From NCBI RefSeq assembly GCF_041886205.1, contig NZ_CP169029.1: a DNA stretch of 64,000 nt, one strand, 5' to 3'. The position numbers and the translations under genes are program-made. Within the stretch, counting starts at the first letter, position 1, and the number at the start of each line of letters is the position of its first letter. The notes beneath the pieces are model-generated. The model saw only the letters and a list, made by a program, of their open reading frames with translations, searched no databases and was not told the origin of the DNA. Of this stretch, positions 1,756-61,689 are shown one piece after another. This DNA is from Escherichia coli (GTDB lineage Bacteria > Pseudomonadota > Gammaproteobacteria > Enterobacterales > Enterobacteriaceae).

Positions 1756-4134
1756 ATGTCCAACAATGGCTCGTCACCGCTGGTGCTTTGGTATAACCAA
1801 CTCGGCATGAATGATGTAGACAGGGTTGGGGGCAAAAATGCCTCCCTGGGTGAAATGATTACTAACCTTTCCGGAATGGGTGTTTCCGTTCCGAATGGTT
1901 TCGCCACAACCGCCGACGCGTTTAACCAGTTTCTGGACCAAAGCGGCGTAAACCAGCGCATTTATGAACTGCTGGATAAAACGGATATTGACGATGTTAC
2001 CCAGCTTGCGAAAGCGGGCGCGCAAATCCGCCAGTGGATTATCGACACTCCCTTCCAGCCTGAGCTGGAAAATGCCATCCGCGAAGCTTATGCACAGCTT
2101 TCCGCCGATGACGAAAACGCCTCTTTTGCGGTGCGCTCTTCCGCTACTGCAGAAGATATGCCGGACGCTTCCTTTGCCGGTCAGCAGGAAACCTTCCTCA
2201 ACGTTCAGGGTTTTGACGCCGTTCTCGTGGCAGTGAAACATGTATTTGCTTCTCTGTTTAACGATCGCGCCATCTCATATCGTGTGCACCAGGGTTACGA
2301 TCACCGTGGTGTGGCGCTCTCCGCCGGTGTTCAACGGATGGTGCGCTCTGACCTCGCATCATCTGGCGTGATGTTCTCCATTGATACCGAATCCGGCTTT
2401 GACCAGGTGGTGTTTATCACTTCCGCATGGGGCCTTGGTGAGATGGTCGTGCAGGGGGCGGTTAACCCGGATGAGTTTTACGTCCATAAACCGACACTTG
2501 CAGCGAATCGCCCGGCTATCGTGCGTCGCACCATGGGGTCGAAAAAAATCCGCATGGTTTACGCGCCGACCCAGGAGCACGGCAAGCAGGTTAAAATCGA
2601 AGACGTACCGCAGGAACAGCGTGACATCTTCTCGCTGACCAACGAAGAAGTGCAGGAACTGGCAAAACAGGCCGTACAAATTGAGAAACACTACGGTCGC
2701 CCGATGGATATTGAGTGGGCGAAAGATGGCCACACCGGCAAACTGTTCATTGTGCAGGCGCGTCCGGAAACCGTGCGCTCACGCGGTCAGGTCATGGAGC
2801 GTTATACACTGCATTCACAGGGTAAGATTATCGCCGAAGGCCGTGCTATCGGTCATCGCATCGGCGCGGGACCGGTGAAAGTCATCCATGACATCAGCGA
2901 AATGAACCGCATCGAACCTGGCGACGTGCTGGTTACTGACATGACCGACCCGGACTGGGAACCGATCATGAAGAAAGCATCTGCCATCGTCACCAACCGT
3001 GGCGGTCGTACCTGTCACGCGGCGATCATCGCTCGTGAACTGGGCATTCCGGCGGTAGTGGGCTGTGGTGATGCAACAGAACGGATGAAAGACGGTGAGA
3101 ACGTCACTGTTTCTTGTGCCGAAGGTGATACCGGTTACGTCTATGCGGAGTTGCTGGAATTTAGCGTGAAAAGCTCCAGCGTAGAAACGATGCCGGATCT
3201 GCCGTTGAAAGTGATGATGAACGTCGGTAACCCGGACCGAGCTTTCGACTTCGCCTGTCTGCCGAACGAAGGCGTGGGCCTTGCGCGTCTGGAATTTATC
3301 ATCAACCGTATGATTGGCGTCCACCCACGCGCACTGCTTGAGTTTGACGATCAGGAACCGCAGTTGCAAAACGAAATCCGCGAGATGATGAAAGGTTTTG
3401 ATTCTCCGCGTGAATTTTACGTTGGTCGTCTGACTGAAGGGATCGCGACGCTGGGTGCCGCGTTTTATCCGAAGCGCGTCATTGTCCGTCTCTCTGATTT
3501 TAAATCGAACGAATATGCCAACCTGGTCGGTGGTGAGCGTTATGAGCCAGATGAAGAGAACCCGATGCTCGGCTTCCGTGGCGCGGGCCGCTATGTTTCC
3601 GACAGCTTCCGCGACTGTTTCGCGCTGGAGTGTGAAGCAGTGAAACGTGTGCGCAACGACATGGGGCTGACCAACGTTGAGATCATGATCCCGTTCGTGC
3701 GTACCGTAGATCAGGCGAAAGCGGTGGTTGAGGAACTGGCGCGTCAGGGGCTGAAGCGTGGTGAGAACGGGCTGAAAATCATCATGATGTGTGAAATCCC
3801 GTCCAACGCCTTGCTGGCCGAGCAGTTCCTCGAATATTTCGACGGCTTCTCAATTGGCTCAAACGATATGACGCAGCTGGCGCTCGGTCTGGACCGTGAC
3901 TCCGGCGTGGTGTCTGAATTGTTCGATGAGCGCAACGATGCGGTGAAAGCACTGCTGTCGATGGCTATCCGTGCCGCTAAGAAACAGGGCAAATATGTCG
4001 GGATTTGCGGTCAGGGGCCGTCCGACCACGAAGACTTTGCCGCATGGTTGATGGAAGAGGGGATCGATAGCCTGTCTCTGAACCCGGATACTGTGGTGCA
4101 AACCTGGTTAAGCCTGGCTGAACTGAAGAAATAA
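1756..4134 (+). CDS. ppsA: phosphoenolpyruvate synthase
   Basis: 792-aa ORF; PEP-utilising enzyme motifs ([13 protein letters not shown]); full-length match to PpsA. Confidence 0.96.
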
Positions 4135-4143
4135 AATAAATAC

Positions 4144-4172
4144 CCGGCGGCGTTTTGTCGCCGGGTTTATGT
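4144..4172. terminator. GC-rich hairpin (CCCGGCGGCG...CGCCGGG) flanked by A/T runs between convergent ppsA and fadK
   Basis: Inverted repeat seen directly in sequence, A-rich before and T-rich after; likely bidirectional. Confidence 0.6.
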
Positions 4173-4190
4173 GATCCCCAAAGATGAAAC

Positions 4191-5837
4191 TTATTCAATC
4201 TCTTCACAGACATCCTGAGTTAACCGCCGCATAATATCTTTTCTTAACAAAAACCTTTGTATTTTACCTGAGGCAGTGCGCGGTAGTTTTTCGATTACCA
4301 CGATATGTTCAGGATATTTATATTTTGCGACCCGTTTACGGCTAAAAAAAGCCACCACCTCTTCCAGCGATAATGAATGATGCGGCGCTTTCAGCACGAC
4401 ATAAGCGCATGATCGTTCACCTAAACGTTCATCGGGCATTGCAACCACACAGGCATCGTGAATTTTAGGATGCTGCAATAAAATATCTTCCACTTCAAGG
4501 CTGCTAATATTTTCGCCGCCGCGGACAATAATATCTTTTTTGCGTCCGGTAATTTTTATATAGCCAGCCTCATCCATACGGCAGAGATCGCCGCTGTAAT
4601 ACCAGCCTTCTTCATCCAGCGCACGGGCGGTTAATTCAGGTTCATCAAAATATCCCATAAACACATTGGGGCCACGCGAGGCTTCTTCACCTTCGCAACC
4701 TGGCGGTAAGGTCTTGCGTGCGTCATCGACCACTTTAATCTCTACACCTGCGGCAGCGTAACCATCGGTGTGCATAAAGCGCGACAAAGGATCATCGAGA
4801 TTCACCACCGCATGCGGCGAACTTTCTGTGGAACCATAAACACTTAATAATTTAATGCTGCGCTGCTGGCATTCACGCGCCACTTTTTTGGGGATTGTGG
4901 TGCCACCGCAAAGAAAGAAGCGCAGCGCTGAAAGGTCTGCGGGCTGTTTCTCTAGCAAATTCAAAAGATCATAGACAAACGGCGTTGCGCCGAGCATACA
5001 GGTGCAACGCTGCTGCTCAAGCAGCGCGAGACACGCATCAGGAGTGAAAATATCTAACAACACGCTGCGAGCACCAATCAAAAATGGTGCTGTTACGCCA
5101 TGCAGAAAGCCCGTTGCGTGGCCGAGTGGCGCAGGCATCATAAAGACATCCTGCCAGGTCAGATTCAGCCGCGTGCAATAAGCCCGCTCACTGGCGAGAA
5201 TATTGTTATGCGTTAGCATCACGCCCTTTGGCAGACCCTCGGTTCCGGAGGTAAACAGCACCGCAGCTAATTCATCGCCGTGGGTCGTTATCGCCGTGGT
5301 CAGTGGGGTATTGTCGGCGATAATCTGACTTAATGAGAGGGAAGAGGTGGCGGGAGCCAGTTTGTCCACGCCGACAATTTGTTGTAGTTGTGGAAGCTGA
5401 TTTTGCAGCGGCAGGATTAAATCTACCGGGCGCGTTTGTTTAAACAACGTCGGTGCAAAGAACATTTTTGCCTGACACTTATTGAGCACCCACACCAGTT
5501 CTGCTTCCCGCCAGGAAGGCAACAGCGGCACGGAAACCGCACCGATTTTCAGGCAGGCAAGATAGATAACGGTAAATTCACACCAGCCAGGCAGTTGAAA
5601 TGCGATGCGATCGCCTGATTCAATACCCTTCGCTAACATCCAGTTTGCCAGACAGCTCGCGGCGTGATCGAGCGCGCTATAGGTGTACGATGCACCATGA
5701 TTATCGACCACGGCAATTTTGTCTGGCATCGCACGAGCGGTCTGCTGCCAGTAATCGGCCAGCGAAGCATCGCCCCATAGCCCTTGCTGACGATACGCCG
5801 CACGACGTTGTTCGTTGAACGTTAATGTCACTTTCAT
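4191..5837 (-). CDS. fadK: short-chain acyl-CoA synthetase (anaerobic)
   Basis: ORF 4191..5891; start chosen at internal Met (MKVTLTFNEQ...) giving 548 aa; AMP-binding motifs (FTSGTEGLPKGV). Confidence 0.88.
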   Translation of the reverse strand: MKVTLTFNEQRRAAYRQQGLWGDASLADYWQQTARAMPDKIAVVDNHGASYTYSALDHAASCLANWMLAKGIESGDRIAFQLPGWCEFTVIYLACLKIGAVSVPLLPSWREAELVWVLNKCQAKMFFAPTLFKQTRPVDLILPLQNQLPQLQQIVGVDKLAPATSSLSLSQIIADNTPLTTAITTHGDELAAVLFTSGTEGLPKGVMLTHNNILASERAYCTRLNLTWQDVFMMPAPLGHATGFLHGVTAPFLIGARSVLLDIFTPDACLALLEQQRCTCMLGATPFVYDLLNLLEKQPADLSALRFFLCGGTTIPKKVARECQQRSIKLLSVYGSTESSPHAVVNLDDPLSRFMHTDGYAAAGVEIKVVDDARKTLPPGCEGEEASRGPNVFMGYFDEPELTARALDEEGWYYSGDLCRMDEAGYIKITGRKKDIIVRGGENISSLEVEDILLQHPKIHDACVVAMPDERLGERSCAYVVLKAPHHSLSLEEVVAFFSRKRVAKYKYPEHIVVIEKLPRTASGKIQRFLLRKDIMRRLTQDVCEEIE

Positions 5838-5893
5838 GTTGGACTCTCGAAACAGAACATCAGGCCCGAGATGCGGGCCTGTGGGATGCATGA

Positions 5894-6187
5894 TTAGCCG
5901 TAGCGAAAATCAATACCGAAGGTGCCTGCGGGATATTGCCACTGTTCGAGAATAGTGTTACCGCACAGCACCCGACAGGTGCCGCACTCCAGACAACCGG
6001 CAGAATCAAAATGAATGTTGCCGGCGTCATCCTGCTTATAAAGTCCGGCAGGGCAGGCTTTCATTAATTTACGGAATTCATTGATATCGGGATTTGCCGC
6101 CAGAATGATATGCGGGTGGCCCTCATCAACATGGAATTTATTGACGCCTAATTTGATGTCGACGTTAACCGTAGCGTTCTGGCTCAT
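5894..6187 (-). CDS. ydiT: ferredoxin-like protein (FixX family)
   Basis: 97-aa ORF with Cys-rich 4Fe-4S motif; position downstream of ydiS. Confidence 0.88.
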   Translation of the reverse strand: MSQNATVNVDIKLGVNKFHVDEGHPHIILAANPDINEFRKLMKACPAGLYKQDDAGNIHFDSAGCLECGTCRVLCGNTILEQWQYPAGTFGIDFRYG

Positions 6188-7473
6188 AGCGCGGTTGCTC
6201 CCTTAATGCCATCTTTCAGCAAGTTGATCAGCCCAATTTTCTTCGCATGTCCCATGATCATTTTTCGTACCGGCTGGTTTGGTTTGCCGTCAATGGTGAA
6301 CATCTCGTTCATGATGTCGGCGACCATGCGCGGATACTGACTAAACAGGCGCGGGTTTTCCATCAGCGCCGGGATCTTGCGAAAATGCTGCATATCACGC
6401 ATGACGCAGCTTTGTTCCAGCTCACGTTTGTATTGCGCCAGACCGCTGGCGGAGAAATCCTCGCGTTTTTTGGCGGCGATCACCGTTGTGGCGGCAGCCT
6501 GAGCCGATGCAATGGCTAAATCCATGCCGCGGACCGTAAAACCCAAATTCAGGCAGAAGCCTGCGGCGTCACCAACGATCATCACGCCCTCGTTAACCAG
6601 TTGCGGCACCATTGCCAGACCGCCTTCCGGCACCATATGTGCGGAATATTCAAGCAGTTTGCCGCCGCTAATCAGCGGGCGAATGGCGGGGTGTTGTTTA
6701 AAATCTTCCAGCATTTGCGGCACGCTTTTTTGCGCATGGGCGATATCACCCAATCCACAAACCAGCCCCAAGGATATGGAATCCTTGTTGGTATAGAGAA
6801 ATCCCCCGCCCATCAGGCCGTCAGAAGGGGAACCGGCAAACAGCCAGGCGGCACCTTCCTCGCCCGTAATATTAAAGCGATCGTTGATCTGTTCTGGTGT
6901 GAGGCCAATAACCTCTTTAACACCAACAGCGTAATGATGCGGATCGGAAGCGGGAACCATTCCCAGCGAGCGGCCAAGCATCGAGTTAACGCCATCAGCC
7001 AGAATCACCACATTCGCTTCGAGAATATCATCCCCAGCCTGGACGCCAGTGACCTTGTTTCCTTCACGAACCAGCGCATCGACGCGAACGCCCGGGATAA
7101 ACTGTGCGCCCGCCTGCTCGGCTTGTTCCATCAACCACGGGTCCAGACGATTACGCAATACGGTATAAGACGCGTGTTGCGGAACATCTGGTTGCTCGCG
7201 GTGAAAGTCGAGGGTAACGGCGCTTTCTTCGGTTAAGAAGGAGATTTTCTCGCGTGTGACCTTGCGTTCTACCGGCGCTGATACTGCAAAGCCTGGAATG
7301 ATTGCTTCAAGTGTGTGGGCATAAAGACGCCCGCCGGTCATGTTTTTACATCCGGCACTGTCGCCGCGTTCTATCACCAGGACATCCAGCCCGGCTCGCG
7401 CCATGACCAGTGCGGCAACGCTACCAGCAACGCCCGCACCGACCACAATGGCATCAAATTTGTCATCCGACAT
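6184..7473 (-). CDS. ydiS: FAD-dependent oxidoreductase (FixC/ETF-QO-like)
   Basis: 429-aa ORF; N-terminal GxGxxG FAD motif (VVGAGVAGS); stop overlaps ydiT start. Confidence 0.9.
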   Translation of the reverse strand: MSDDKFDAIVVGAGVAGSVAALVMARAGLDVLVIERGDSAGCKNMTGGRLYAHTLEAIIPGFAVSAPVERKVTREKISFLTEESAVTLDFHREQPDVPQHASYTVLRNRLDPWLMEQAEQAGAQFIPGVRVDALVREGNKVTGVQAGDDILEANVVILADGVNSMLGRSLGMVPASDPHHYAVGVKEVIGLTPEQINDRFNITGEEGAAWLFAGSPSDGLMGGGFLYTNKDSISLGLVCGLGDIAHAQKSVPQMLEDFKQHPAIRPLISGGKLLEYSAHMVPEGGLAMVPQLVNEGVMIVGDAAGFCLNLGFTVRGMDLAIASAQAAATTVIAAKKREDFSASGLAQYKRELEQSCVMRDMQHFRKIPALMENPRLFSQYPRMVADIMNEMFTIDGKPNQPVRKMIMGHAKKIGLINLLKDGIKGATAL

Positions 7474-7528
7474 GCGTTATGCTCCCTTCCCGCTGCGTTT
7501 ACAGCGGGAGATGTGGTTGAAAGGGGAA

Positions 7529-8467
7529 TTAGCGGCTCAACTGGCTAATCAGGGCAGGGACGACTTTGTAGATATCGCCCACCAGACCGTAGTCGGCATA
7601 GTTGAAGATTGGCGCATTTTTATCTTTATTGATGGCGACAATCACTTTTGCGCCGTTGCCGCCAACCATATGCTGGATCTGCCCGGAGATCCCCAGCGTC
7701 AGGTAGAGATCGGATTTCAGTAACACGCCGGAGACACCGATATAACGTTCACGCTCCATCCAGTTCTCGCCTTCGGCAATTGGACGTGAACAGCCGACTT
7801 CAGCATTCAGAACCGCCGCCAGTTCGTGGACCATTTTCAGGTCATCCTGCGCTGCCAGACCACGACCGACGCCAACCACACGTTTTGCTTTGCTCAGGTC
7901 CACGCTGCTTGCCGCTTTCGCACGGCGCTCGCGACAGAGAATTTCATGACGCGGAGCAACATAAGGTACCGTTTCTGTCGGGCATTGATGAGAGTTATCA
8001 CTGGCGCACGGTTCCTGTACACCGGGTGCAAGGGTAATGATCGCCAGCGGGCTGTTGATCTTTTCCTGAGCGAACGCTAACCCGCCATACATCCGGTGTT
8101 CGGCGCAAATGTGATCATCGACAATATCCACCGCCGTGGCATCGTTCACCAGCGCCGCATTCAGTTGCACACTTAACCGTGCTGCCAGAGCTTTACTACG
8201 TTTCGTCGCGGCCAACAGCAACATAGCGGGGTGTTTATCTTTCAGCAGGGCAGCAATGCTTTCGGCGTAATTTTCAGTACGTTGCAGCGCGTCGTTTTGC
8301 GCAAGAACATAAATACATTTTGGACCATAAGGCATAACTGCCTGCGCCTGGTCGGTATTTTGTACAATGGCATACACCTGTTGGCCCCATTGCTGCGCGC
8401 CGCCAAACAGTTCAGCATAACGTTCAGGATTATCGCTAAAGACCCAGACGCTGTTTAATTGACTCAT
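7529..8467 (-). CDS. ydiR: electron transfer flavoprotein alpha subunit-like
   Basis: 312-aa ORF recognised as EtfA/FixB homolog. Confidence 0.9.
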   Translation of the reverse strand: MSQLNSVWVFSDNPERYAELFGGAQQWGQQVYAIVQNTDQAQAVMPYGPKCIYVLAQNDALQRTENYAESIAALLKDKHPAMLLLAATKRSKALAARLSVQLNAALVNDATAVDIVDDHICAEHRMYGGLAFAQEKINSPLAIITLAPGVQEPCASDNSHQCPTETVPYVAPRHEILCRERRAKAASSVDLSKAKRVVGVGRGLAAQDDLKMVHELAAVLNAEVGCSRPIAEGENWMERERYIGVSGVLLKSDLYLTLGISGQIQHMVGGNGAKVIVAINKDKNAPIFNYADYGLVGDIYKVVPALISQLSR

Positions 8468-8486
8468 CGTTTCTTCTCCGTAGGCT

Positions 8487-9251
8487 TCAGTTCAGGGCTT
8501 TCTTCAGATGTTCCGCCAGCTCGGCAATGGCCTCCGGCGAATCGTTATCGAGAATGATGTGCTTACGTTCTGTTTGCGGCGGTACGCGAATGCCGACCAG
8601 TTCAGCAAGTGGCGCGCTCTGGCTCCAGCCAATATCACTTGCCTGCCACTGATTTACCGGTTTTTTACCCGCGCCAAGAATGGCTTTCATCGAAGGAATG
8701 CGTGGCACGTTAATATCGGAGGTGACGCAGAGCACGGCTGGAACAGAGAGTTCAATAACTTCAACATCATCTTCAAGCGTGCGTTCAATCACCAGTGTAT
8801 TGCCCTGACGCTGAATAGCACTCACTGCATTAATCACCGGAAGTTGCAGAATTTCTCCGACCAGCAAGCCAACCTGCTGGGCATAAAGGTCGCCGGAACC
8901 TTCACCAAAGATCAGTAAATCGAAGCCGATCTTTTCAACTGCTGCCGCCAGTGCTTTTGCGGTATCGAGAGGCAGTGCATGTTCAAGTTGCGCATCCTGC
9001 ACCAAATACAGGCTGTGCGGCCCGCGGGATAGCACGTCTTTGCGCACTTTCGAGTTCTGCAACAATGAGCCGCCAACGGTCAGCGCGGCTATCTCATCGT
9101 CATCTGTTGCAAGCTGGCTTGCAGCTTCAATGGCATTGAGATCGAACTGGCTGATTTTGGCGTCGGCATTATCGAAATTCAGGGTGTATTCTGGAGTGAC
9201 AACAATGTCCTGTTCTTCAGGCACCAGCTTAAAGCAGGTTATTATTTTCAT
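8487..9251 (-). CDS. ydiQ: electron transfer flavoprotein beta subunit-like
   Basis: ORF 8487..9350; start chosen at MKIITCFKLV with AGGAGA RBS upstream, giving 254 aa. Confidence 0.88.
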   Translation of the reverse strand: MKIITCFKLVPEEQDIVVTPEYTLNFDNADAKISQFDLNAIEAASQLATDDDEIAALTVGGSLLQNSKVRKDVLSRGPHSLYLVQDAQLEHALPLDTAKALAAAVEKIGFDLLIFGEGSGDLYAQQVGLLVGEILQLPVINAVSAIQRQGNTLVIERTLEDDVEVIELSVPAVLCVTSDINVPRIPSMKAILGAGKKPVNQWQASDIGWSQSAPLAELVGIRVPPQTERKHIILDNDSPEAIAELAEHLKKALN

Positions 9252-9566
9252 GATTTCTCCTGTGAGTCGCATACGGAACCATCTCCGATGGAAGGTAAAA
9301 ATGGCCTGAAAATAGTGTGCGATAGCGGTGCGGGGTTTTCGACGGAGCAAGCTGTTTTCCTTGCCAACAATCTTGCAAAAAAAATGCGATCGCTAAAACA
9401 AAAGTGCAATTTGCGGCAATATAGTTATTCCATGACCGTACAATCTTGCATTCAGTGTAAATAATCTTGTTTAGCTCTCGCTAAACGCGGTTGTATAACC
9501 GCAATACACGCCGTATTTTATCCGGCATATATTGTTTTTGCTTGCTCATGGAATAGGGAGGTTGTC

Positions 9567-10478
9567 ATGTATCAACGCTGTTTTGATAATGCCAGTGAAA
9601 CGCTGTTTGTCGCCGGTAAAATGCCACGGCTTTCACGTTTTGCATTTAGCGATGATCCAAAATGGGAGTCTGGACATCACGTTCATGACAATGAAACCGA
9701 GCTGATTTACGTCAAGAAAGGGGTGGCAAGGTTTACCATCGATTCTTCATTATATGTCGCGCATGCAGATGATATAGTGGTGATAGAACGCGGCAGGTTG
9801 CATGCGGTGGCCTCTGACGTTAACGATCCGGCAACGACGTGTACTTGTGCGCTGTATGGCTTTCAGTTTCAGGGGGCTGAGGAAAATCAGCTACTGCAAC
9901 CGCATTCTTGTCCGGTAATTGCCGCGGGGCAGGGAAAAGAAGTCATAAAAACCTTATTTAATGAGCTAAGTGTGATTTTGCCGCAAAGTAAAAATAGCCA
10001 AACATCTTCGTTATGGGATGCATTTGCCTATACATTAGCAATTCTTTACTACGAAAACTTTAAAAATGCTTATCGTTCGGAGCAGGGGTATATTAAAAAA
10101 GATGTTCTGATAAAAGATATTCTTTTTTATCTGAATAATAATTATCGCGAAAAAATCACTTTAGAACAGTTATCGAAAAAATTTCGTGCCAGCGTCAGTT
10201 ATATTTGCCATGAATTTACCAAAGAGTATCGTATTTCCCCTATTAACTATGTTATTCAACGGCGTATGACGGAAGCAAAATGGTCACTCACTAATACTGA
10301 ATTATCACAGGCAGAGATCTCCTGGCGTGTGGGTTATGAAAATGTCGATCACTTTGCCAAACTGTTTTTGCGCCATGTCGGTTGTTCGCCCAGCGATTAC
10401 CGTAGGCAATTTAAAAATTGTTTTGCGGAACAAGAAATCTTATCTGAATTTCCTCAACCGGTAAGTCTTGTTGGATAA
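9567..10478 (+). CDS. ydiP: AraC-family transcriptional regulator
   Basis: 303-aa ORF with C-terminal AraC-type HTH; divergent from ydiQRST-fadK. Confidence 0.88.
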   Translation: MYQRCFDNASETLFVAGKMPRLSRFAFSDDPKWESGHHVHDNETELIYVKKGVARFTIDSSLYVAHADDIVVIERGRLHAVASDVNDPATTCTCALYGFQFQGAEENQLLQPHSCPVIAAGQGKEVIKTLFNELSVILPQSKNSQTSSLWDAFAYTLAILYYENFKNAYRSEQGYIKKDVLIKDILFYLNNNYREKITLEQLSKKFRASVSYICHEFTKEYRISPINYVIQRRMTEAKWSLTNTELSQAEISWRVGYENVDHFAKLFLRHVGCSPSDYRRQFKNCFAEQEILSEFPQPVSLVG

Positions 10479-10520
10479 ATCTGGCGGCGCACTTTGTTAG
10501 GAAGCTGCGCCGCCTGCAGA

Positions 10521-11672
10521 TTATTTGTTCTGATAATCTTTCAGGATCTGCCGACCTGCTACGTAAATCATAATTTCGTCTGTACCGCCGCCGATACGTT
10601 CACAACGGACATCACGCCAGAAGCGGGAGACGCGCGCCTCATCGGTATAGCCCAGACCGCCCATGATTTGAATCGCATCATCAATGACTTCCATTGCGGT
10701 ACGTGCACAGTACAGTTTTGCCAGCGCCGCGCTGGTGCGCAGTGATTGATGCTGATCGGCTTGCCATGCCACTTTCAGCACCATGTTGCGCATGTTGTCG
10801 ATCTTAATCGCCATCAGCGCCAGTTTTTCCTGGATCATCTGGTTATGCCCAATGGGTTTACCAAAAGCGATACGCTGGTTGGCATAGCGAGCGGCATCTT
10901 CAAAGGCACACTCGGCAAAGCCGGTGCTGCGCGCGGCGTTGATCAGGCGCTCCATCTCAAAGTTGTACATCACATTGAGGAAACCCATTCCTTCTTCGCC
11001 CACCATGTCGCTCTCTTCAACTTCCACGTTGTCGAGATAGACTTCGCAGGTGCTGAGCATATGCCAGCCGATTTTATGCAGCGGGTTAATCTTAATGCCG
11101 GGCTTACTGGAGTCGACCCACCACAGGGTGAAGGCCTTTTTCGGATCATTCGGTTCAGGATCGCGCGCCAGCACCAGCATATATGGGTACTCTTTCGCAC
11201 CGGTAATAAAGGTTTTCTGTCCGTTGATGTAAACCTTGCCGTTTTTACGCGTGTAAGTGGTGGTGGCACTGTTGTTGTCTGAGCCTGCGCCTGGCTCCGT
11301 CAACGCCAGGGCATAGGCGGGATCACCCGTTTCCAGGGTGCTTTCTGCCGTTTTACGTAGCTGCTCTGCAGAACCGAAACGGCGCATACTGTGAATACAT
11401 TGACCGTTGGTGATCAAAAATGCCGGAGCACCGCATTTTGACACTTCCATCAGCGCCAGCATCTGGGTGACGTAATCCGCAGGGATACCACCAAATTCTT
11501 CCGGCACGCCAAGCATGGAAATACCGTTATCCGCCAGTGCCCGCATAAATTCACGCGGGTATGTCCCGTTTTGATCGCAGGTGCGGAAATACTCTTCCGG
11601 AAAGTTAGTCGTAATCAGTTCGCGAATACTGGCCAGCAGCAGTTCTTGTTCTTCAGTTAAAGAAAAATCCAT
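10521..11672 (-). CDS. ydiO: acyl-CoA dehydrogenase (CaiA-like)
   Basis: ORF 10521..11726; start chosen at MDFSLTEEQELL giving 383 aa; acyl-CoA dehydrogenase family. Confidence 0.88.
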   Translation of the reverse strand: MDFSLTEEQELLLASIRELITTNFPEEYFRTCDQNGTYPREFMRALADNGISMLGVPEEFGGIPADYVTQMLALMEVSKCGAPAFLITNGQCIHSMRRFGSAEQLRKTAESTLETGDPAYALALTEPGAGSDNNSATTTYTRKNGKVYINGQKTFITGAKEYPYMLVLARDPEPNDPKKAFTLWWVDSSKPGIKINPLHKIGWHMLSTCEVYLDNVEVEESDMVGEEGMGFLNVMYNFEMERLINAARSTGFAECAFEDAARYANQRIAFGKPIGHNQMIQEKLALMAIKIDNMRNMVLKVAWQADQHQSLRTSAALAKLYCARTAMEVIDDAIQIMGGLGYTDEARVSRFWRDVRCERIGGGTDEIMIYVAGRQILKDYQNK

Positions 11673-13280
11673 CGTGATACTCCTGTTAATGAGCCGCTTC
11701 AGGCAGGACAAAACCCATCGCCGCATCGATAAATAATCTTTCGTCCATCAGTTTGAGTTCTGGCGAAATCACTGGGGTGAAATCCATTTTGTCGAGAATA
11801 TCTTTTTGTAAATCGACGCCAGGGGCGATTTCGATTAAATGCAGTCCGTCTTCTTTCAGCGTGAATACTGCGCGCTCAGTGATATAACGAACATCCAGCC
11901 CTCGCTCGAGAGCGATTTTTCCGCTAAAAGTAATTTCCGGTAGTTCCCGAATAAATTTATTTACCCGTCCTTCCTGGACGATATTCAATTTGCCGTCGGT
12001 AATTTCTGTTTTTAAACTGCCCGCAGTTAATGTGCCGCAGAAAACGATTTTCTTCGAAGTGGCACTGATATCAATAAATCCACCGGTGCCCATGATTTTA
12101 CCATTGAATTTATGCACGCCGACGTTACCGTGCTGGTCGACTTCAGCAAAACTCAAATAACAAACATCCAGACCGCCACCGTGATAAAAATCAAACTGGG
12201 ACGTCATATCCAGAATGGCGCGGGTATTCACGTTCGCGCCAAAGGCGATCCCCTGTGAAGTAATTCCGCCAATCGGACCTGTTTCTACCGTCAGAATAAA
12301 GTCATCAGCACAACCTTCTTCTCGGGCGACCAGGCCAATGCCGTCAGCAATACCGACGCCGACATTCCCCACCGCGCCTTTACGCATTTCGAATAATGCG
12401 CGCCGCGCAACTAATTTACGTTGGTTTAGGGGCAGGCTAAGTTTGGTACTGTCATCAAGGGTGAAGTCACCAGAAATAAAGCGGTTAACCGGTGCACCGC
12501 CATACAGTTGGGTTTGATCCGGATCGACCACCACAATATCCACCAGATAACCCGGAATACGGACAGATTTAGGATGCAGCGTGGCTTTCTTAACCATTTT
12601 CTGCACCTGCATCATCACAATACCGCCGTTATTGTGCACCGCCTGGGCAATAACCAATGCGTCGAGATACATCACCTCATCTTCAAAAGTGGCGTAGCCT
12701 TCGCTGTCGCAGGTGGTAGCGCGAATGAAGGCGATATCTGGCGCAATCGCTTTGTAATAGAGATATTCTTTGTTATCAAACTCGACCAGTTTAATCAGGT
12801 CTTCTTTAGTGACTTCATTCAGTTTGCCGCCTTGCTGGCGTGGATCGACAAATGTCCCGATGCCAATATCACTAATAATACCAGGCTGGTGGGCTGCGGC
12901 GGCGCGTAAGGTTTGTGTAAGTACACCTTGTGGATAGTTATAAGCAATAATTTTATTTTGTTCTGCGAGATCAGAAATACGCGGCGATTGTCCCCAGTGA
13001 CCGCATAATGCCCATTTCACCAGACCTTCTTGCGCCAGCGGACTAATACCGCGATCGGCGCGATCGCCAAGCCCTGTTGGACTAATAATCGATAAATTAC
13101 GTGGCGTTTGAGTCTGTTTATATTTATCAGCAAGAGCAGTAATTAACGTGGTGGCTTCCAGAATACCGCCGCCAGCGCCTAACACACAAAGTGTTGCTTC
13201 GTCGGGAATATAATTCACCGCTTCCGGTGATGCTGCCAACTTACTGATTTAGTGTATGATGGTGTTTTTGAGGTGCTCCA

Positions 13281-13556
13281 GTGGCTTCTGTTTCTATCAG
13301 CTGTCCCTCCTGTTCAGCTACTGACGGGGTGGTGCGTAACGGCAAAAGCACCGCCGGACATCAGCGCTATCTCTGCTCTCACTGCCGTAAAACATGGCAA
13401 CTGCAGTTCACTTACACCGCTTCTCAACCCGGTACGCACCAGAAAATCATTGATATGGCCATGAATGGCGTTGGATGCCGGGCAACCGCCCGCATTATGG
13501 GCGTTGGCCTCAACACGATTTTCCGCCATTTAAAAAACTCAGGCCGCAGTCGGTAA
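13281..13556 (+). CDS. insA: IS1 InsA (transposition inhibitor / N-terminal part of transposase)
   Basis: 91-aa [25 protein letters not shown]...; A6C frameshift motif (TTAAAAAACTC) near its 3' end. Confidence 0.9.
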
Positions 13557-13978
13557 CCTCGCGCATACAGCCGGGCAGTGACGTCATCGTCTGCGCGGAA
13601 ATGGACGAACAGTGGGGCTATGTCGGGGCTAAATCGCGCCAGCGCTGGCTGTTTTACGCGTATGACAGGCTCCGGAAGACGGTTGTTGCGCACGTATTCG
13701 GTGAACGCACTATGGCGACGCTGGGGCGTCTTATGAGCCTGCTGTCACCCTTTGACGTGGTGATATGGATGACGGATGGCTGGCCGCTGTATGAATCCCG
13801 CCTGAAGGGAAAGCTGCACGTAATCAGCAAGCGATATACGCAGCGAATTGAGCGGCATAACCTGAATCTGAGACAGCACCTGGCACGGCTGGGACGGAAG
13901 TCGCTGTCGTTCTCAAAATCGGTGGAGCTGCATGACAAAGTCATCGGGCATTATCTGAACATAAAACACTATCAATAA
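13475..13978 (+). CDS. insB: IS1 InsB reading frame (expressed as InsAB' transposase by -1 frameshift)
   Basis: 167-aa ORF recognised as IS1 InsB. Confidence 0.88.
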
Positions 13979-14202
13979 GTTGGAGTCATTACCCCGCTTC
14001 CTGTGCCGACAGGACCGGCACTCGTCCATTAATACGAGGTGGTTTTACAGGTTTCATTGTTAATTCCTGATTCAGGTGTGATTTTCCCTACGCCAGATGG
14101 AGAATTAGCGCACAGAGACTCACGAAATATTTTTATTAAATACGGTTAACTATATTTTTTTTAGTTCGGCGGGGGAGGGTATTCCCGCCGAAATATTATT
14201 GC

Positions 14203-14961
14203 TTATGCCTGATGTAAAATAGTTAATACAGTGCGCAAATCATTTACCGAGATTTGCCCTGGTGCAGAGGCTTTTTTTACCGCACCAAAAGTTGCCGCCG
14301 AGCCAAATACTTCACCAGCCAGACGAGAAATTACGCCAGTTTTTGCCATCGACATCGTGATGATTGGACGATCGGCATACTGCTCCTGCATCTCCAGGGT
14401 CGCGGCAAGCAACGTCAGCACATCGCTGGTACTTTGCGGCATCAGCGCAATCTTAGGAATATCGGCGTCGAAGGACTGCATTTTGCGCAGACGGGCAATG
14501 ATTTCTTCGGCTTCCGGCGTTTTATGGAAGTCATGGTTGGACATGACAACTTTCACATCATGCGCGTGGGCGTAGGCGACGGTTTCTTTAACCTGATCAT
14601 CGCCGGTAAATAACTCCAGATCGATCATATCAACCAGGCCGCTGTCGATGGCTGCACGATTGAGAGCAATATAAGCCTCGGTGGAAATCGCCTGCTCGCC
14701 GCCTTCTTTGGCACTGCGGAAGGTAAACAGCAGCGGTTTTTCTGGCATGGTTTCACGGAGAATTTTTGCCGCCGCCATGACAGACTCCACATTGGAGAGG
14801 TCGGCAAAGTGGTCCACACGCCATTCCAGAATATCAAAGTCCGCTTCACGATAGGCGAGAGCTTCGGATTTCACGCGGGCGATATCTTTCGCCATCAGCG
14901 AGACGATGATTTTAGGTGCGCCCGTACCAATGACGAGATCTTTTACAGTTACGGTTTTCAT
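14203..14961 (-). CDS. aroD: 3-dehydroquinate dehydratase (type I)
   Basis: 252-aa ORF recognised as AroD. Confidence 0.93.
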
Positions 14962-14991
14962 TTTTTACCCTTTCTGCACGCGGTCAGCCTG

Positions 14992-15858
14992 TCAGGCACC
15001 GAACCCCATGACCTGTTTAACATATTCCAGAGGGAAATCTTTGCCAGTCCATAACGTGAACTGTTCAGCCCCTTGCCACAACAACATGCCGTATCCATCA
15101 ATCGTTTTGCAACCAGCTTGTTGCGCCTGCTGCAATAACTTCGTCATATGCGGGTTATACACGCATTCAGTGACCAGAAGTCCCGGATGTAACAGACTGA
15201 TATCATTAACTAATGATTCATTCTCAAGGGGTTTCATACCCACTTTTGTGCCATTGGTTAAAATGTCGGCGGAAGCCAGGGCTTCAGCAAAGGCTTGCTG
15301 ATCGGCGAGATCGGTAACCGTGACGACACAATCGGTGTTTTCGTTAACCCGCTGCGCGAAGGCGAGGGCTTTATCGAAGAACTCATCCCGACGGTTAAAG
15401 AGTTTAATTTCTTTTAAACCTTCAATTGCCCCCTGCGCGCCAATCGCCGTTGAGGCACCTCCGGCCCCTAACAGCACCATTGTTTTGCCTTTGATATCAA
15501 AACCGCTCTCTTTAATGGCGCGAATATGGCCCGTGCCATCGGTGTTATAGCCGCGCAGGTAGCCATCATCATTAACGATGGTGTTGATGGCACCCACCAG
15601 TTTGGCTGCCGGCGTTAATTCATCAACATATTCACACGCCAGTTGTTTGTTCGGCATTGATACACCAGTTCCGCGCATTTTTAGAGCTTTTAATCCTTCA
15701 ATTGCTCCGGGAAAGCTATCGTTATCCACTTCGAAGGCCATATAGGTAAATGGCAATCCCGCTTTTTCTAAGGCTTTATTCTGCATTTCAGGCGATAAAC
15801 TGTGGCGGATAGGATAAGCCATCAACCCAATCAATTCGTATTTTGCGGTAACATCCAT
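14992..15858 (-). CDS. ydiB: quinate/shikimate dehydrogenase
   Basis: 288-aa ORF recognised as YdiB (AroE paralog). Confidence 0.92.
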
Positions 15859-15869
15859 AATTAACTCCT

Positions 15870-17141
15870 TTAACCTCTATGCTTAATTGTGTTTAACCGG
15901 GTGCTAAATTTGCGCTCGCCAAACCGCACATCATTCTCAGGAATAATAAAAACGCGGTAATAGCGGATAAAAACAATAATTGCGGTAATCAGGGCCAGCA
16001 GCGCGAAAGTAAAATCGAGAACAATGATATATTGCAGGCCGATGTTCGACAGATAACCGGTAATCAGCGGAATAACAAAGTTAGCCAGTCCACCCATCAT
16101 CATATAAATACTGGTGACTTTGGCTTTGCTTTTTGGGAAAAACTCTGACATGACCGAAACACCGAGCTGTAAAATGCCGCCAGCTGCTGAGAAACCGATA
16201 ACAAAGGCGCCGGCATTACACACCAGTGGAGAAGGGTACAGGTAGATAATGGCTGCTGTTATTGTTGCCAGTGCAGAGTTAAATACATTAGCCCAGATGG
16301 GCCGGACCATTTTTTTCAGTAGTGCGGCAAAAATAAAGACACAGACCAACGAGCCCATACTGTAATAAGAGATGGTTTTTAATGCCTCAGCTTCTGACAT
16401 ACCAGCAAAAGCCATCGCATATTTGGGCATCCACACCACAATCACATAAAAGGTCGAGAATGCGGCTACACCGAACAGTACCGATGAAACACCTTCCAGC
16501 CAGACTAACGGTTTGCTGTTCATTTGCGGTAATTCATTAGCTACGCTGGCGTCCACCAACTGGCTGGGGAATTTGCTTTTCAACAGCATCAGCGTGATCA
16601 GTACAAACAGAATACCCGGAATAATCAGCCCATAGCCGTACCAGATATTATTGAGCAACATATAGCTCACCAGCATTGGGTAGAACATTTGCCCGAATGA
16701 CACCATCGCTTTAACCAGTATGACCGCCGAACCAGAGGCTTTCGGAAAGCATTCCATGAGCGCGGGGTAGCCACCCGTATCCAGCGCTGAGTTAGCGATA
16801 CCTACGCACACTGCCAGACCGTAGGCGAGAGTTAAATTCGGGCAAGCGGGAATACCAAAGAAGAATAGCAGATACATTATTACTGCCATTAATATCACCG
16901 CCCGACGACCAAACTTATCGGAGATCACACCGAAGAATAAAATACTGATCAATCGCCCCAAACCGATACCGGAAATTAAGTAGGCAATGCCCGCGTTGTC
17001 AGTGGAAAACTTTTCCGCCAGAGATGACATATTTTGGGCAAGCGTAATAACACTAATGCCGTGCAGGAAGTAGCTGAAGTAAATACAAAGAACAGCCAGG
17101 ATAAATGGTGTGCTGAAAGCCTTATTTTGAGACATTTTCAC
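15870..17141 (-). CDS. ydiN: MFS transporter
   Basis: 423-aa hydrophobic ORF; true start may be 1–2 codons downstream. Confidence 0.85.
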
Positions 17142-60200: not shown

Positions 60201-61567
60201 CCACGATCCGGAATGGTGCCGCCGCTGGTAACCGCCAACAATTGAGCGCCAGGTCGGGCGGTCAATATCCCGGTCTCCCTGTTCCAGACCAGTTTGGGGC
60301 GAAAAGCAGAAAAATCGCCAGAGGGATAGCGCCCGGAAAGCATATCCAGCGTGGCGTCAAAAACACGTCTTGGCAGATCTTTCCACGGTGCGGCACGGCG
60401 TACGCGGGAGTACCATTCGTCTACCTGTAATGCATCCATCGCCGCGGCGGCAACGGTTTGCTGCGCAAGGACGTCGAGAGGATTATGCGGTGGTGTCAGG
60501 TTTTCCAGCCTGCCTGCGAACATACACTCTACAATGACTGTGGAATCGACTAAATCACGCCGGGTACGGGGGAAAAACAGCCCTTTAGATACACCGCCAA
60601 CCTGATGTCCGGCGCGACCAATGCGTTGTAACCCACTGGCAACAGAAAGCGGCGTTGCCACCTGAATCACCAGATCCACCGCGCCCATATCAATCCCCAG
60701 TTCAAGACTGGAGGTTGCGACCACGCAGCGTAATTCACCCGATTTCAGCGCCTGTTCGGTGATTGCTCGTTGTTCTTTAGAGACGGAGCCGTGGTGTGAG
60801 CGGGCAATAAAAACGTCGCTACTTTGTACACGGTTAGAGGTTGCGCCGGAGGTCGACTCGAAATGGGCCGCATCAACGGCGATAGACGGGGAACGCTGTA
60901 AGCGTGCGGCGTAAAGCTCATTTAATCGTGCCGTCAGTTTTTCCGCCAGCCCCCGCGAATTAGTAAAGACAATGGTCGAGCGATGGCGCAACACTTCATC
61001 AAGGATGCCCGTTTCAATATATGGCCAGATGGAGCCTTCCCGGCCGGCATGGCTGTCTTCGCCAGTGCCGCTGGCGACCGATGAGACATCATCCATATTG
61101 GCGACCGGTACGACAATCCGTATCTGCGGATGACGCATTGCGGGCGGGTTGACTACCGTAACCGGGCGATCGCCACCAAGAAATGCTGCCACATCGCTGG
61201 CTGAGCGCACAGTGGCAGAAAGGCCAATTCGCTGTGCTGAGGTGTGGAGCAGCGCATCGAGCCGCTCCAGACTTAACGCCAGATGCGCACCACGTTTACT
61301 GCCCGCTACCGCGTGGACTTCATCAATAATTACCGTTTCGACGCCGCGTAGCGTTTCGCGCGCGCGGGAGGTCAGCATCAGATAGAGTGATTCGGGTGTG
61401 GTGATCAGAATATCCGGCGGATTACGGGTGAGTTTGCTGCGTTCCTGTGCAGGCGTATCGCCAGTACGGATCCCTACGCGAAGATTGACTTCCGTTTCGC
61501 CGCGCCGCTGAAAAGCGGCGCACGAAAAACGCGAAAGCGTTTCACGATAAATGCGAAAACAACTGTT
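57242..61567 (-). pseudogene. lhr: ATP-dependent helicase Lhr, 5'-truncated (lacks N-terminal region with helicase motif I)
   Basis: Track ORF 57242..61378 (1378 aa) begins just before motif II (IIDEVHAV); frame stays open upstream to a stop at ~61568 with no ATG/GTG/TTG; Lhr in K-12 is about 1538 aa; yniB starts at 61690. Confidence 0.8.
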
Positions 61568-61689
61568 TCACGGAAAGGCATAATGGTTAAACACCCGGTT
61601 CTGGCGCATATAACTGAACGAAGTACACGACAAAAAAATATGTCACAGGTAAACTAAGTGAAACGACGCGTCTTAATCAAGGAGAACTC

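Follow-up and report, generated by a model that had tools for sequence, protein, structure and literature searches.

We analysed a stretch of 64,000 nucleotides of Escherichia coli DNA (contig NZ_CP169029.1, referred to here as the window), which contains the ydiF-ydiO / ydiP / ydiQRST-fadK locus. This chromosomal locus is already known but poorly understood: it forms part of the E. coli 'y-ome' and is cited in connection with anaerobic use of fatty acids or butyrate and with engineered reverse beta-oxidation. On balance, we favour the explanation that the locus specifies a non-bifurcating chain running from an acyl-CoA dehydrogenase through an electron-transferring flavoprotein (ETF) to an ETF:quinone oxidoreductase, and that in the strain studied a private insertion of the element IS1 has abolished one of its components, the CoA-transferase YdiF.

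The identity of the locus is clear from a Megablast search with positions 3000-16000 of the window against 5,426 complete E. coli genomes, which returned full-length matches at 98.4-99.7% identity. The gene order is ppsR-ppsA / fadK-ydiT-ydiS-ydiR-ydiQ / ydiP / ydiO-ydiF-aroD-ydiB-ydiN, in agreement with both the best match and K-12 MG1655, relative to which the window is in reverse complement (the K-12 genes b1693-b1702 being syntenic). The genes, their order, orientation and lengths, and the flanks (aroD and ppsA) are all identical to those of the K-12 locus b1694-b1701, except that ydiF is broken by IS1 at nucleotide 64 here and uninterrupted in K-12. A DNA identity of about 98.5% to K-12 points to a different lineage, and the closest complete genomes are those of strains VE-T9, XJ5.2 and wlxctx60. 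The genes of the cluster are as follows.

4191-5891, minus strand: fadK (ydiD), short/medium-chain acyl-CoA ligase (NCBIfam NF004758, 1085.7 bits, cutoff 736)
5894-6187, minus strand: ydiT, FixX-like ferredoxin of 97 residues with five Cys (best family FixX, NF011993)
6184-7473, minus strand: ydiS, FixC-like ETF:quinone oxidoreductase flavoprotein of 429 residues (NF007450, 974 bits, cutoff 466)
7529-8467, minus strand: ydiR, ETF alpha, FixB-like (NF008884, 686.3 bits, cutoff 528; Pfam ETF and ETF_alpha)
8487-9251, minus strand: ydiQ, ETF beta, FixA-like, with DLYAQQ at residues 121-126 (NF008998, 499.5 bits, cutoff 338)
9567-10478, plus strand: ydiP, AraC-family regulator (Pfam HTH_18, Cupin_2 and AraC_binding; one residue different from K-12)
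10521-11672, minus strand: ydiO, acyl-CoA dehydrogenase / enoyl-CoA reductase (NF008997, 785.9 bits, cutoff 537)
11686-13225 and 13994-14057, minus strand: ydiF, family I CoA-transferase (Pfam CoA_trans, PF01144, 4.4e-48)

These family matches, together with the synteny with K-12, bear out the gene identities given in an initial annotation of the region, including the linkage of an acyl-CoA dehydrogenase to a Fix-like ETF system (EtfB, EtfA, FixC and FixX). The range assigned to the cluster there (5894-13239) does need correction, as it omits fadK, a gene named in that annotation, as well as IS1 (13226-13993) and the 5' stub of ydiF; its end at 13239 is merely the TTG start of a mechanical open reading frame (ORF) that reaches 14 nucleotides into IS1. 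YdiT scores 144 bits against the FixX model, under the cutoff of 166, there being no dedicated YdiT model, and YdiF likewise has no dedicated NCBIfam model, with its best match falling under the cutoff.

Seven of the eight cluster genes are intact ORFs and ydiF alone is split. A gene-by-gene comparison showed that fadK, ydiT, ydiS, ydiR, ydiQ, ydiP and ydiO have K-12 lengths, no internal stops and 98-99.7% identity to K-12, with 5-31 nucleotide changes each, yet only 1-8 amino acid changes (29 and 2, respectively, in ydiO), which indicates purifying selection. The start and stop codons of ydiT and ydiS overlap by 4 bp (ATGA, 6184-6187), as previously noticed, and the intergenic gaps within ydiQRST range from -4 to 55 bp. 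The start of ydiO lies 13 bp beyond the ydiF stop, and ydiP, described before simply as divergent, is divergent from ydiQ over a gap of 315 bp and convergent with ydiO. The fadK coordinates correspond to the 566-residue K-12-style ORF, which equals the K-12 gene in length and differs from it at eight residues; the RefSeq start giving 548 residues is at 5837, and the alignment to NF004758 begins at residue 19. A GC-rich hairpin, CAGGCCCGCATCTCGGGCCTG, occurs at 5861-5881 (minus strand), between the ydiT stop and the start of the 548-residue form. Its location inside the longer fadK annotation speaks either for the shorter start or for structured RNA between the cistrons.

The second-best NCBIfam family of each redox subunit is CaiA or one of FixA, FixB, FixC and FixX (for YdiO, it is CaiA, NF002885, at 452.7 bits), and apart from those of FixA and FixC the Cai and Fix models score under their cutoffs on the ydi proteins. 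Pairwise identities are 48% for YdiO/CaiA, 57% for YdiQ/FixA, 45% for YdiR/FixB, 62% for YdiS/FixC, 63% for YdiT/FixX and 32.5% for FadK/CaiC. Judged by these comparisons, the ydi cluster is a subunit-by-subunit paralogue, rather than an orthologue, of CaiA/CaiC plus FixABCX: a CaiA-type reductase, a FixABCX-type electron supply and a CaiC-type ligase are all present, YdiQ and FixA share the motif DLYAQQ, and the 4-bp overlap of the FixC/FixX-type genes occurs in both systems. The likeness does not extend to the rest of the cai system, since YdiF is a family I CoA-transferase unrelated to the family III enzyme CaiB, the regulator is of the AraC type, and the CaiD hydratase, the CaiT antiporter, CaiE and CaiF are missing from the cluster; no counterpart of CaiB, CaiD, CaiT or CaiF was found between aroD and ppsA.

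YdiO and CaiA both have Gly at the position of the catalytic Glu of the medium-chain acyl-CoA dehydrogenase type (IGGGTDE and VSGGSDE, respectively), and both have a conserved Glu in the motif F-E/D-x-E-R, the position used by isovaleryl-CoA dehydrogenase. The catalytic base of YdiO is thus plausibly retained. YdiR contains the ETF alpha domain PF00766 (4.1e-28), which binds flavin adenine dinucleotide (FAD), and YdiS the quinone-binding domain ETFQO_UQ-bd (PF21162; 37.7 against a cutoff of 27.7). Canonical ETF:quinone oxidoreductase (ETF-QO) is a single polypeptide with its own [4Fe-4S] domain, whereas here the function is divided between YdiS, which matches the 584-residue chain of 2gmh over residues 35-421, and the separate ferredoxin YdiT. 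Three of three distant YdiQ relatives are likewise encoded beside an acyl-CoA dehydrogenase gene, one of these relatives, P0028, being next to genes for 2-hydroxyacyl-CoA dehydratase.

Signatures of electron bifurcation

The initial annotation regarded the gene arrangement as matching an electron-bifurcating acyl-CoA dehydrogenase/Etf system. The EtfB 'zipper' of group 2, or bifurcating, ETFs reads DGDTAQ (100% D, 95% G, 85% D, 100% T, 86% A and 93% Q; n=216) and that of group 1, or canonical, ETFs D-D-D-x-N-Q; in addition, EtfA of bifurcating ETFs has a near-universal Arg165, and the R165H variant of RpaETF loses nucleotide binding (PMC8958531). EtfB Thr94 and Thr97 form hydrogen bonds to the phosphate nearest the flavin in the bifurcating FAD, whose place is taken by AMP when these residues are changed to Ala (PMC9713284), and the bifurcating FixABCX complex contains two [4Fe-4S] clusters (PMC5861303).

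We read the zipper and the Thr94/Thr97 positions from HMMER alignments to solved structures. YdiQ has DLYAQQVG where CarD, LctB and EtfB of C. difficile have DGDTAQVG, and it lacks the canonical zipper as well (DNDMNA in Paracoccus, DDDCNQ in human). It has Pro94 and Thr97, the Pro being found likewise in the Paracoccus and human ETFs. The Arg165 column falls on His of YdiR (AEHRMYGG) in three of five alignments and on Arg in the other two, each of which includes a one-residue gap; Arg is absent from this position in FixB, which reads VKHMVYGG. The five Cys of YdiT are at positions 45, 65, 68, 71 and 75, and the segment CxxCxxxxCxxCC, which ligates the first cluster in T. maritima EtfX, is matched by a Cys-free stretch of YdiT; as far as the alignment indicates, YdiT has cysteines for one [4Fe-4S] cluster only. 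We also performed a HMMER scan of 1.84 billion representatives, which gave 106 clusters at E<=1e-30. DGDTAQ is present in just one of the 97 full-length sequences within the best 150 matches, and 96 of these nearest 97 family representatives have D-x-Y/F-A/S-Q/R-Q.

Bifurcating FixABCX/EtfABCX (from A. vinelandii and T. maritima, 7KOE) has four subunits homologous to YdiQRST, including the membrane-associated quinone-reducing C subunit; it differs from the ydi system in having DGDTAQ and Thr94 in the counterpart of YdiQ and a second [4Fe-4S] cluster in that of YdiT. Linkage to an acyl-CoA dehydrogenase, in place of nitrogenase or NADH metabolism, further sets the ydi genes apart. The clostridial Bcd/EtfAB and CarCDE complexes (5OL2, 6FAH) resemble the ydi cluster in that an acyl-CoA dehydrogenase and EtfB/EtfA are encoded together but, unlike it, are soluble, have no FixC or FixX subunits, contain DGDTAQ and the bifurcating FAD, and employ NADH and ferredoxin.

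Were YdiQRST bifurcating after all, the electrons of NADH would be split at a second FAD in YdiQ, with enoyl-CoA or quinone receiving one and ferredoxin or flavodoxin the other. The similarity searches are in keeping with this idea, because among PDB entries YdiQ and YdiR match bifurcating ETFs best (CarDE, LctBC and C. difficile EtfAB), with the human and Paracoccus ETFs ranking below them, and the best matches of YdiT and YdiS are the bifurcating T. maritima subunits EtfX (7koe_D, 2.3e-14) and EtfC (7koe_C, 6.7e-69; pig ETF-QO, 2gmh, follows at 7.8e-25); Thr97 is kept, too. We nevertheless consider it very unlikely, given that the zipper of YdiQ lacks the T invariant among the 216 bifurcating sequences and the G present in 95% of them, that Pro replaces one of the two Thr whose loss exchanges the bifurcating FAD for AMP, that the Arg165 position, ambiguous in YdiR, pairs with His in three of five alignments and is occupied by a residue other than Arg in FixB, that YdiT has room for one cluster instead of two, and that FixC and FixX would be needless for a complex of the Bcd/EtfAB type. 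YdiQRST, as its sequence features suggest, is Fix-like in architecture and belongs to a distinct ETF clade without the known bifurcating-flavin features. The popular label 'bifurcating Etf' thus appears to be a misfit, being unsupported although not disproved, and YdiQR together with E. coli FixAB would represent a separate clade with the motif D-x-Y-A-Q-Q.

Interruption of ydiF by IS1

The features of the insertion are the following.

13210-13239, minus strand: candidate hybrid outward promoter at the IS1 end, with TTGGCA (-35, from IS1), an 18-nucleotide spacer and AATTAT (-10, from ydiF)
11686-13225, minus strand: ydiF 3' fragment, codons 22-531, keeping the catalytic E333 (VETG) and lacking a start codon
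13218-13225, no strand: target-site duplication, copy 1, CCGCTTCC (8-bp direct repeat)
13226-13993, plus strand: IS1, 768 bp, terminal repeats read directly, insA/insB' frames antisense to ydiF
13994-14001, no strand: target-site duplication, copy 2, CCGCTTCC (8-bp direct repeat)
13994-14057, minus strand: ydiF 5' remnant, nucleotides 1-64 (codons 1-21 plus one base), translation MKPVKPPRINGRVPVLSAQEA as in K-12

All features expected of an IS1 member are found in the element, namely the length of 768 bp, terminal inverted repeats (GGTGATGCTGCC... and ...GGAGTCATTACC), the insA-insB' frames (ORFs at 13281-13556 and 13475-13978) and an 8-bp target duplication, and homologous elements in related genomes, 94-99.5% identical to this copy, are annotated as IS1 family transposase. 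It is the only IS1 copy in the window. The insertion lies after nucleotide 64 of ydiF, in codon 22, and in silico excision of IS1 with one of the repeats restores a ydiF ORF of 1,596 nucleotides and 531 codons that differs from K-12 at three residues. The CoA-transferase gene is indeed knocked out by IS1, as had been proposed. A 240-bp junction probe found the same junction in none of the other genomes among the 5,426 complete E. coli genomes, so the insertion is recent and private; the exact-junction pattern was also not encountered in 100,044 species-representative genomes, a result which is uninformative, as few Shigella or E. coli are among them. Shigella as the source of the DNA was considered and dismissed, since the window has one IS1 only and 24 kb of it are 100% identical to commensal E. 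coli genomes.

In both orientations IS1 classically exerts polar effects, and with the start of ydiO so close to the ydiF stop the insertion probably lowers ydiO expression. Prentki et al. reportedly showed in 1986 that IS1 ends can donate a -35 box to hybrid promoters. The candidate promoter listed above faces ydiF'-ydiO and has nine of the 12 consensus matches, and its existence as a functional element is speculative; the sigma-70 scan was at chance level (13 found against 11.9 expected), as was a scan for terminators (13 against 11.8).

Is the insertion an isolated event? The cluster is present at a coverage of at least 80% in 5,346 of the 5,426 genomes. Among 60 genomes sampled at even spacing, seven had IS1-sized insertions in the 9.3-kb cluster and three had insertions in the neighbouring 7.3-kb ppsA-selO control, a difference which is not significant alone. 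Twelve different IS1 sites, spanning positions 5545-9586 of the K-12 locus (about 9280-14100 of the window), were mapped in 11 E. coli strains: four in ydiF (nucleotides 57, 146, 350 and 526), two upstream of it, five in ydiP (nucleotides 414, 505, 654, 768 and 774) and one in the ydiQ-ydiP spacer. None of them is in ydiO, ydiQRST or fadK. This skew, together with the numbers of genomes (out of about 5,400) without an intact 501-bp tile, which are 44 for ydiP, 29 for the ydiF 5' part and 0 for ydiS, points to an IS1 hotspot; in natural E. coli, ydiF, ydiP and their upstream regions have been struck by IS1 repeatedly. The two genes are also the most AT-rich of the cluster (42% GC for ydiP in K-12, 47.5% for ydiF). 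The recurrence could stem from the target preference of IS1, from relaxed selection or from positive selection, which these data do not distinguish.

Two other genomes exemplify more severe decay of the cluster. In E. coli GDSC2239PM, IS5 truncates ydiO and an additional IS1 is present upstream of ydiF. In Enterobacter sp. EA-1, neither ydiP nor ydiS could be detected, and fadK and ydiO are broken up or of low identity. The ydiQRSTD operon of Salmonella Typhimurium, which serves anaerobic butyrate use, is orthologous and has been lost in some lineages (it is deleted in S. Typhi); in the present case IS1 has struck ydiF, which does not belong to that operon, and has done so in a single strain.

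It might be proposed that the whole cluster is cryptic or dispensable and in the process of being lost, with IS1 marking the neutral decay of an unused module. The 12 independent IS1 sites, the seven affected genomes of the sample of 60 and the disrupted ydiP and ydiF tiles would all fit, as would the 53-80 genomes that lack all or part of the cluster, the IS5 copy in ydiO of GDSC2239PM, an internal stop in ydiF of CP53, and a clinical isolate that lost the entire operon (bioRxiv 10.64898/2026.03.06.710075). Such decay seems quite improbable in view of the coverage in the vast majority of genomes, the collinearity over at least nine genera (see below), the mostly synonymous character of the changes relative to K-12, of which ydiO is an example, and the absence of any disruption of the ydiS tile. 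The earlier statement that the module may be partly decayed is weakly true in the sense that ydiF is broken, by a recent and private event; it does not apply to the seven other genes, which are intact with few amino acid changes.

Direction of electron flow and substrates

In the non-bifurcating chain that we favour, a carboxylic acid would be converted to its CoA thioester either by FadK, an ATP-dependent ligase, or by YdiF through CoA transfer from acetyl-CoA, and the CaiA-like flavoprotein YdiO would interconvert the acyl-CoA and the 2-enoyl-CoA. Electrons would travel singly through the one FAD of the YdiQ/YdiR ETF; the [4Fe-4S] cluster of YdiT and the YdiS FAD would then exchange them with the membrane quinone pool in either direction. 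After the loss of YdiF to IS1, the FadK route and ydiQRST should still be intact. The direction of electron flow would be set by the quinone and the substrate, and physiologically the chain most likely oxidises short/medium-chain acyl-CoA in anaerobic respiration. Work by Campbell, Morgan-Kiss and Cronan, as cited in a later review (PMC9329746), reports that fadD fadK double mutants show no anaerobic fatty-acid use, and two Salmonella studies (PMC9530198, PMC13170390) describe ydiQRSTD as required for anaerobic butyrate oxidation with electron acceptors.

The same proteins could also work in reverse: FadK or YdiF would activate an unsaturated or hydroxy acid, and YdiO would act as a terminal enoyl-CoA reductase fed by quinol electrons via YdiST and YdiQR, in the manner of CaiA/FixABCX with crotonobetainyl-CoA. 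This is conceivable, if doubtful. The nearest characterised paralogues are FixABCX and CaiA, the latter annotated in K-12 as 'crotonobetainyl-CoA reductase'; the 2-hydroxyacyl-CoA dehydratase cluster containing P0028 represents a reductive pathway; engineered reverse beta-oxidation has made use of YdiO for the enoyl-CoA reductase step (PMC10318755); and, with potentials of -10 mV for butyryl-/crotonyl-CoA, -70 mV for menaquinone and +90 mV for ubiquinone (PMC5861303), the transfer from quinol at -70 mV to enoyl-CoA would be downhill. However, the Salmonella genetics concerns butyrate oxidation with an external electron acceptor, the cluster has no gene for a CaiD-like hydratase or a CaiT-like antiporter, and the relevance of YdiQRST to the engineered reaction is called unclear by the very review that describes it (PMC10318755).

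Several considerations weigh against the oxidative, non-bifurcating chain. By the same potentials, oxidation of butyryl-CoA with menaquinone would be uphill, and the paralogous CaiA/FixABCX and the relative P0028 operate in the reductive direction. A 2022 review calls the function of YdiQR unknown and experimental evidence lacking, and it also reports that the anaerobic induction of fadK was not reproduced, leaving its regulation contested (PMC9329746). All four YdiQRST subunits are homologous to those of the genuinely bifurcating EtfABCX, a missing motif does not prove that the second flavin is missing, and the equivalent of Arg165 in YdiR is ambiguous, appearing as His or Arg depending on a one-residue gap. 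Finally, the candidate hybrid promoter at the IS1 end could possibly offset the presumed polarity on ydiO.

The neighbourhood of the cluster raises yet another possibility concerning the substrate. We compared 38 loci from at least nine genera, and in all 35 with enough flank the genes ydiB-aroD-ydiF-ydiO-ydiP-ydiQRST-fadK are collinear, with ydiN directly upstream in 11 of the 12 distant loci tested. The block from ydiN to fadK (4191-17135 in the window) occurs in Escherichia, Citrobacter, Kosakonia, Yersinia, Serratia, Dickeya, Brenneria, Prodigiosinella and Symbiopectobacterium; the flank beyond it is otherwise not kept, ppsA adjoining it only in Escherichia and Citrobacter. Quinate/shikimate genes are in this way physically joined to the CoA/ETF genes, as ydiB encodes a quinate/shikimate dehydrogenase and ydiN a transporter of the major facilitator superfamily, and shikimate-accumulating cells showed induction of ydiN-ydiB-aroD (Johansson and Liden 2006, as cited in PMC4585142). 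The conserved block and the shikimate response lead to the speculation that hydroaromatic acids are the substrate class. The functional unit would then be larger than assumed above: the CoA, acyl-CoA dehydrogenase and ETF genes would act on a quinate- or shikimate-derived hydroaromatic acid instead of straight-chain fatty acids (YdiO might, for example, reduce or oxidise a cyclohexene-carboxyl-CoA), with YdiP as the sensor, and the recurrent IS1 hits in ydiF and ydiP would reflect selected rewiring rather than neutral decay. We rate this scenario as rather unlikely.

Control of the cluster and the far end of the window

Two features between ydiQ and ydiP bear on the control of the cluster.

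9252-9566, no strand: divergent ydiQ-ydiP control region, 315 bp, no differences from K-12
9340-9384, minus strand: 45-bp element TTTTTTTTGCAAGATTGTTGGCAAGGAAAACAGCTTGCTCCGTCG, 89-133 nucleotides upstream of the ydiQ ATG (MAFFT alignment)

The co-directional genes were previously interpreted as a unit, and this is upheld by the short gaps within ydiQRST and by their expression: all four, ydiQ, ydiR, ydiS and ydiT, rank with the genes whose expression differs most in a shikimate-producing strain (PMC4015609), which supports operon co-regulation. The 45-bp element is conserved from Escherichia to Yersinia, Serratia and Brenneria in a MAFFT alignment of ydiQ upstream regions from 13 taxa, and it is a candidate ydiQ promoter/operator, possibly one for YdiP; we infer that YdiP probably controls ydiQRST-fadK from this conserved element. 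A sigma-54 promoter was also considered for the element and abandoned, as the spacing is wrong on reading the sequence. The spacer contains three repeats of the CAAGATTRT type (ACAATCTTGCA at 9367-9377 and 9440-9450, and ATAATCTTGTT at 9461-9471), and up to three such repeats occur in Escherichia, Citrobacter and Kosakonia.

Sites for FNR and CRP had been suggested for the interval 9351-9566, but ydiQ starts at 9251, not at 9350, and the spacer to be scanned is hence 9252-9566. Nothing above chance was found there. As a whole, the scan for FNR (TTGATN4ATCAA) yielded 44 matches against 36 expected and that for CRP (TGTGAN6TCACA) 21 against 26.6, and the sole match touching the spacer, an FNR-like site with two mismatches at 9562-9575, overlaps the ydiP ATG and was rejected as evidence. 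A genomic-SELEX peak of FlhDC has been located at the ydiP 5' end, beside 'ydiQRST-fadK' (PMC9962212). The direct repeat AACGCTGTTT occurs twice in this part of ydiP (9574-9583 and 9599-9608), coinciding with sequences listed for the peak in the same study. The region upstream of ydiQ also varies between the 45-bp element and the ydiQ ATG, where strain XJ5.2 carries IS1; Dickeya, Prodigiosinella and Brenneria have an extra insert of about 150-200 bp between the element and ydiQ, which holds a small ORF starting AACCGGAGAAAAAnATG....

At the far end of the window, the gene lhr is cut at 61510, about 350 nucleotides from its 5' end, by sequence of the right end of phage Mu (48 bp at 61513-61560, 100% identical). 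These 48 bp are followed by 67 bp without a match anywhere and then by yniB-yniA-ghoS-pfkB (junction at about 61510-61628), genes that other E. coli carry, in this orientation, some 17 kb outside the start of the window. From the order of these segments, the junction looks like the joint of a tandem duplication of about 81 kb, of a circle, or of an engineered or Mu-mediated rearrangement that includes the ydi cluster; if it is a tandem duplication or a circle, a second copy of ydiF may exist in the genome. The best E. coli matches to positions 40000-61500 come in three to four pieces, with an IS3-family transposase listed near ydhQ/ydhS, and these split matches indicate at least one more insertion sequence or strain-variable segment in the window.

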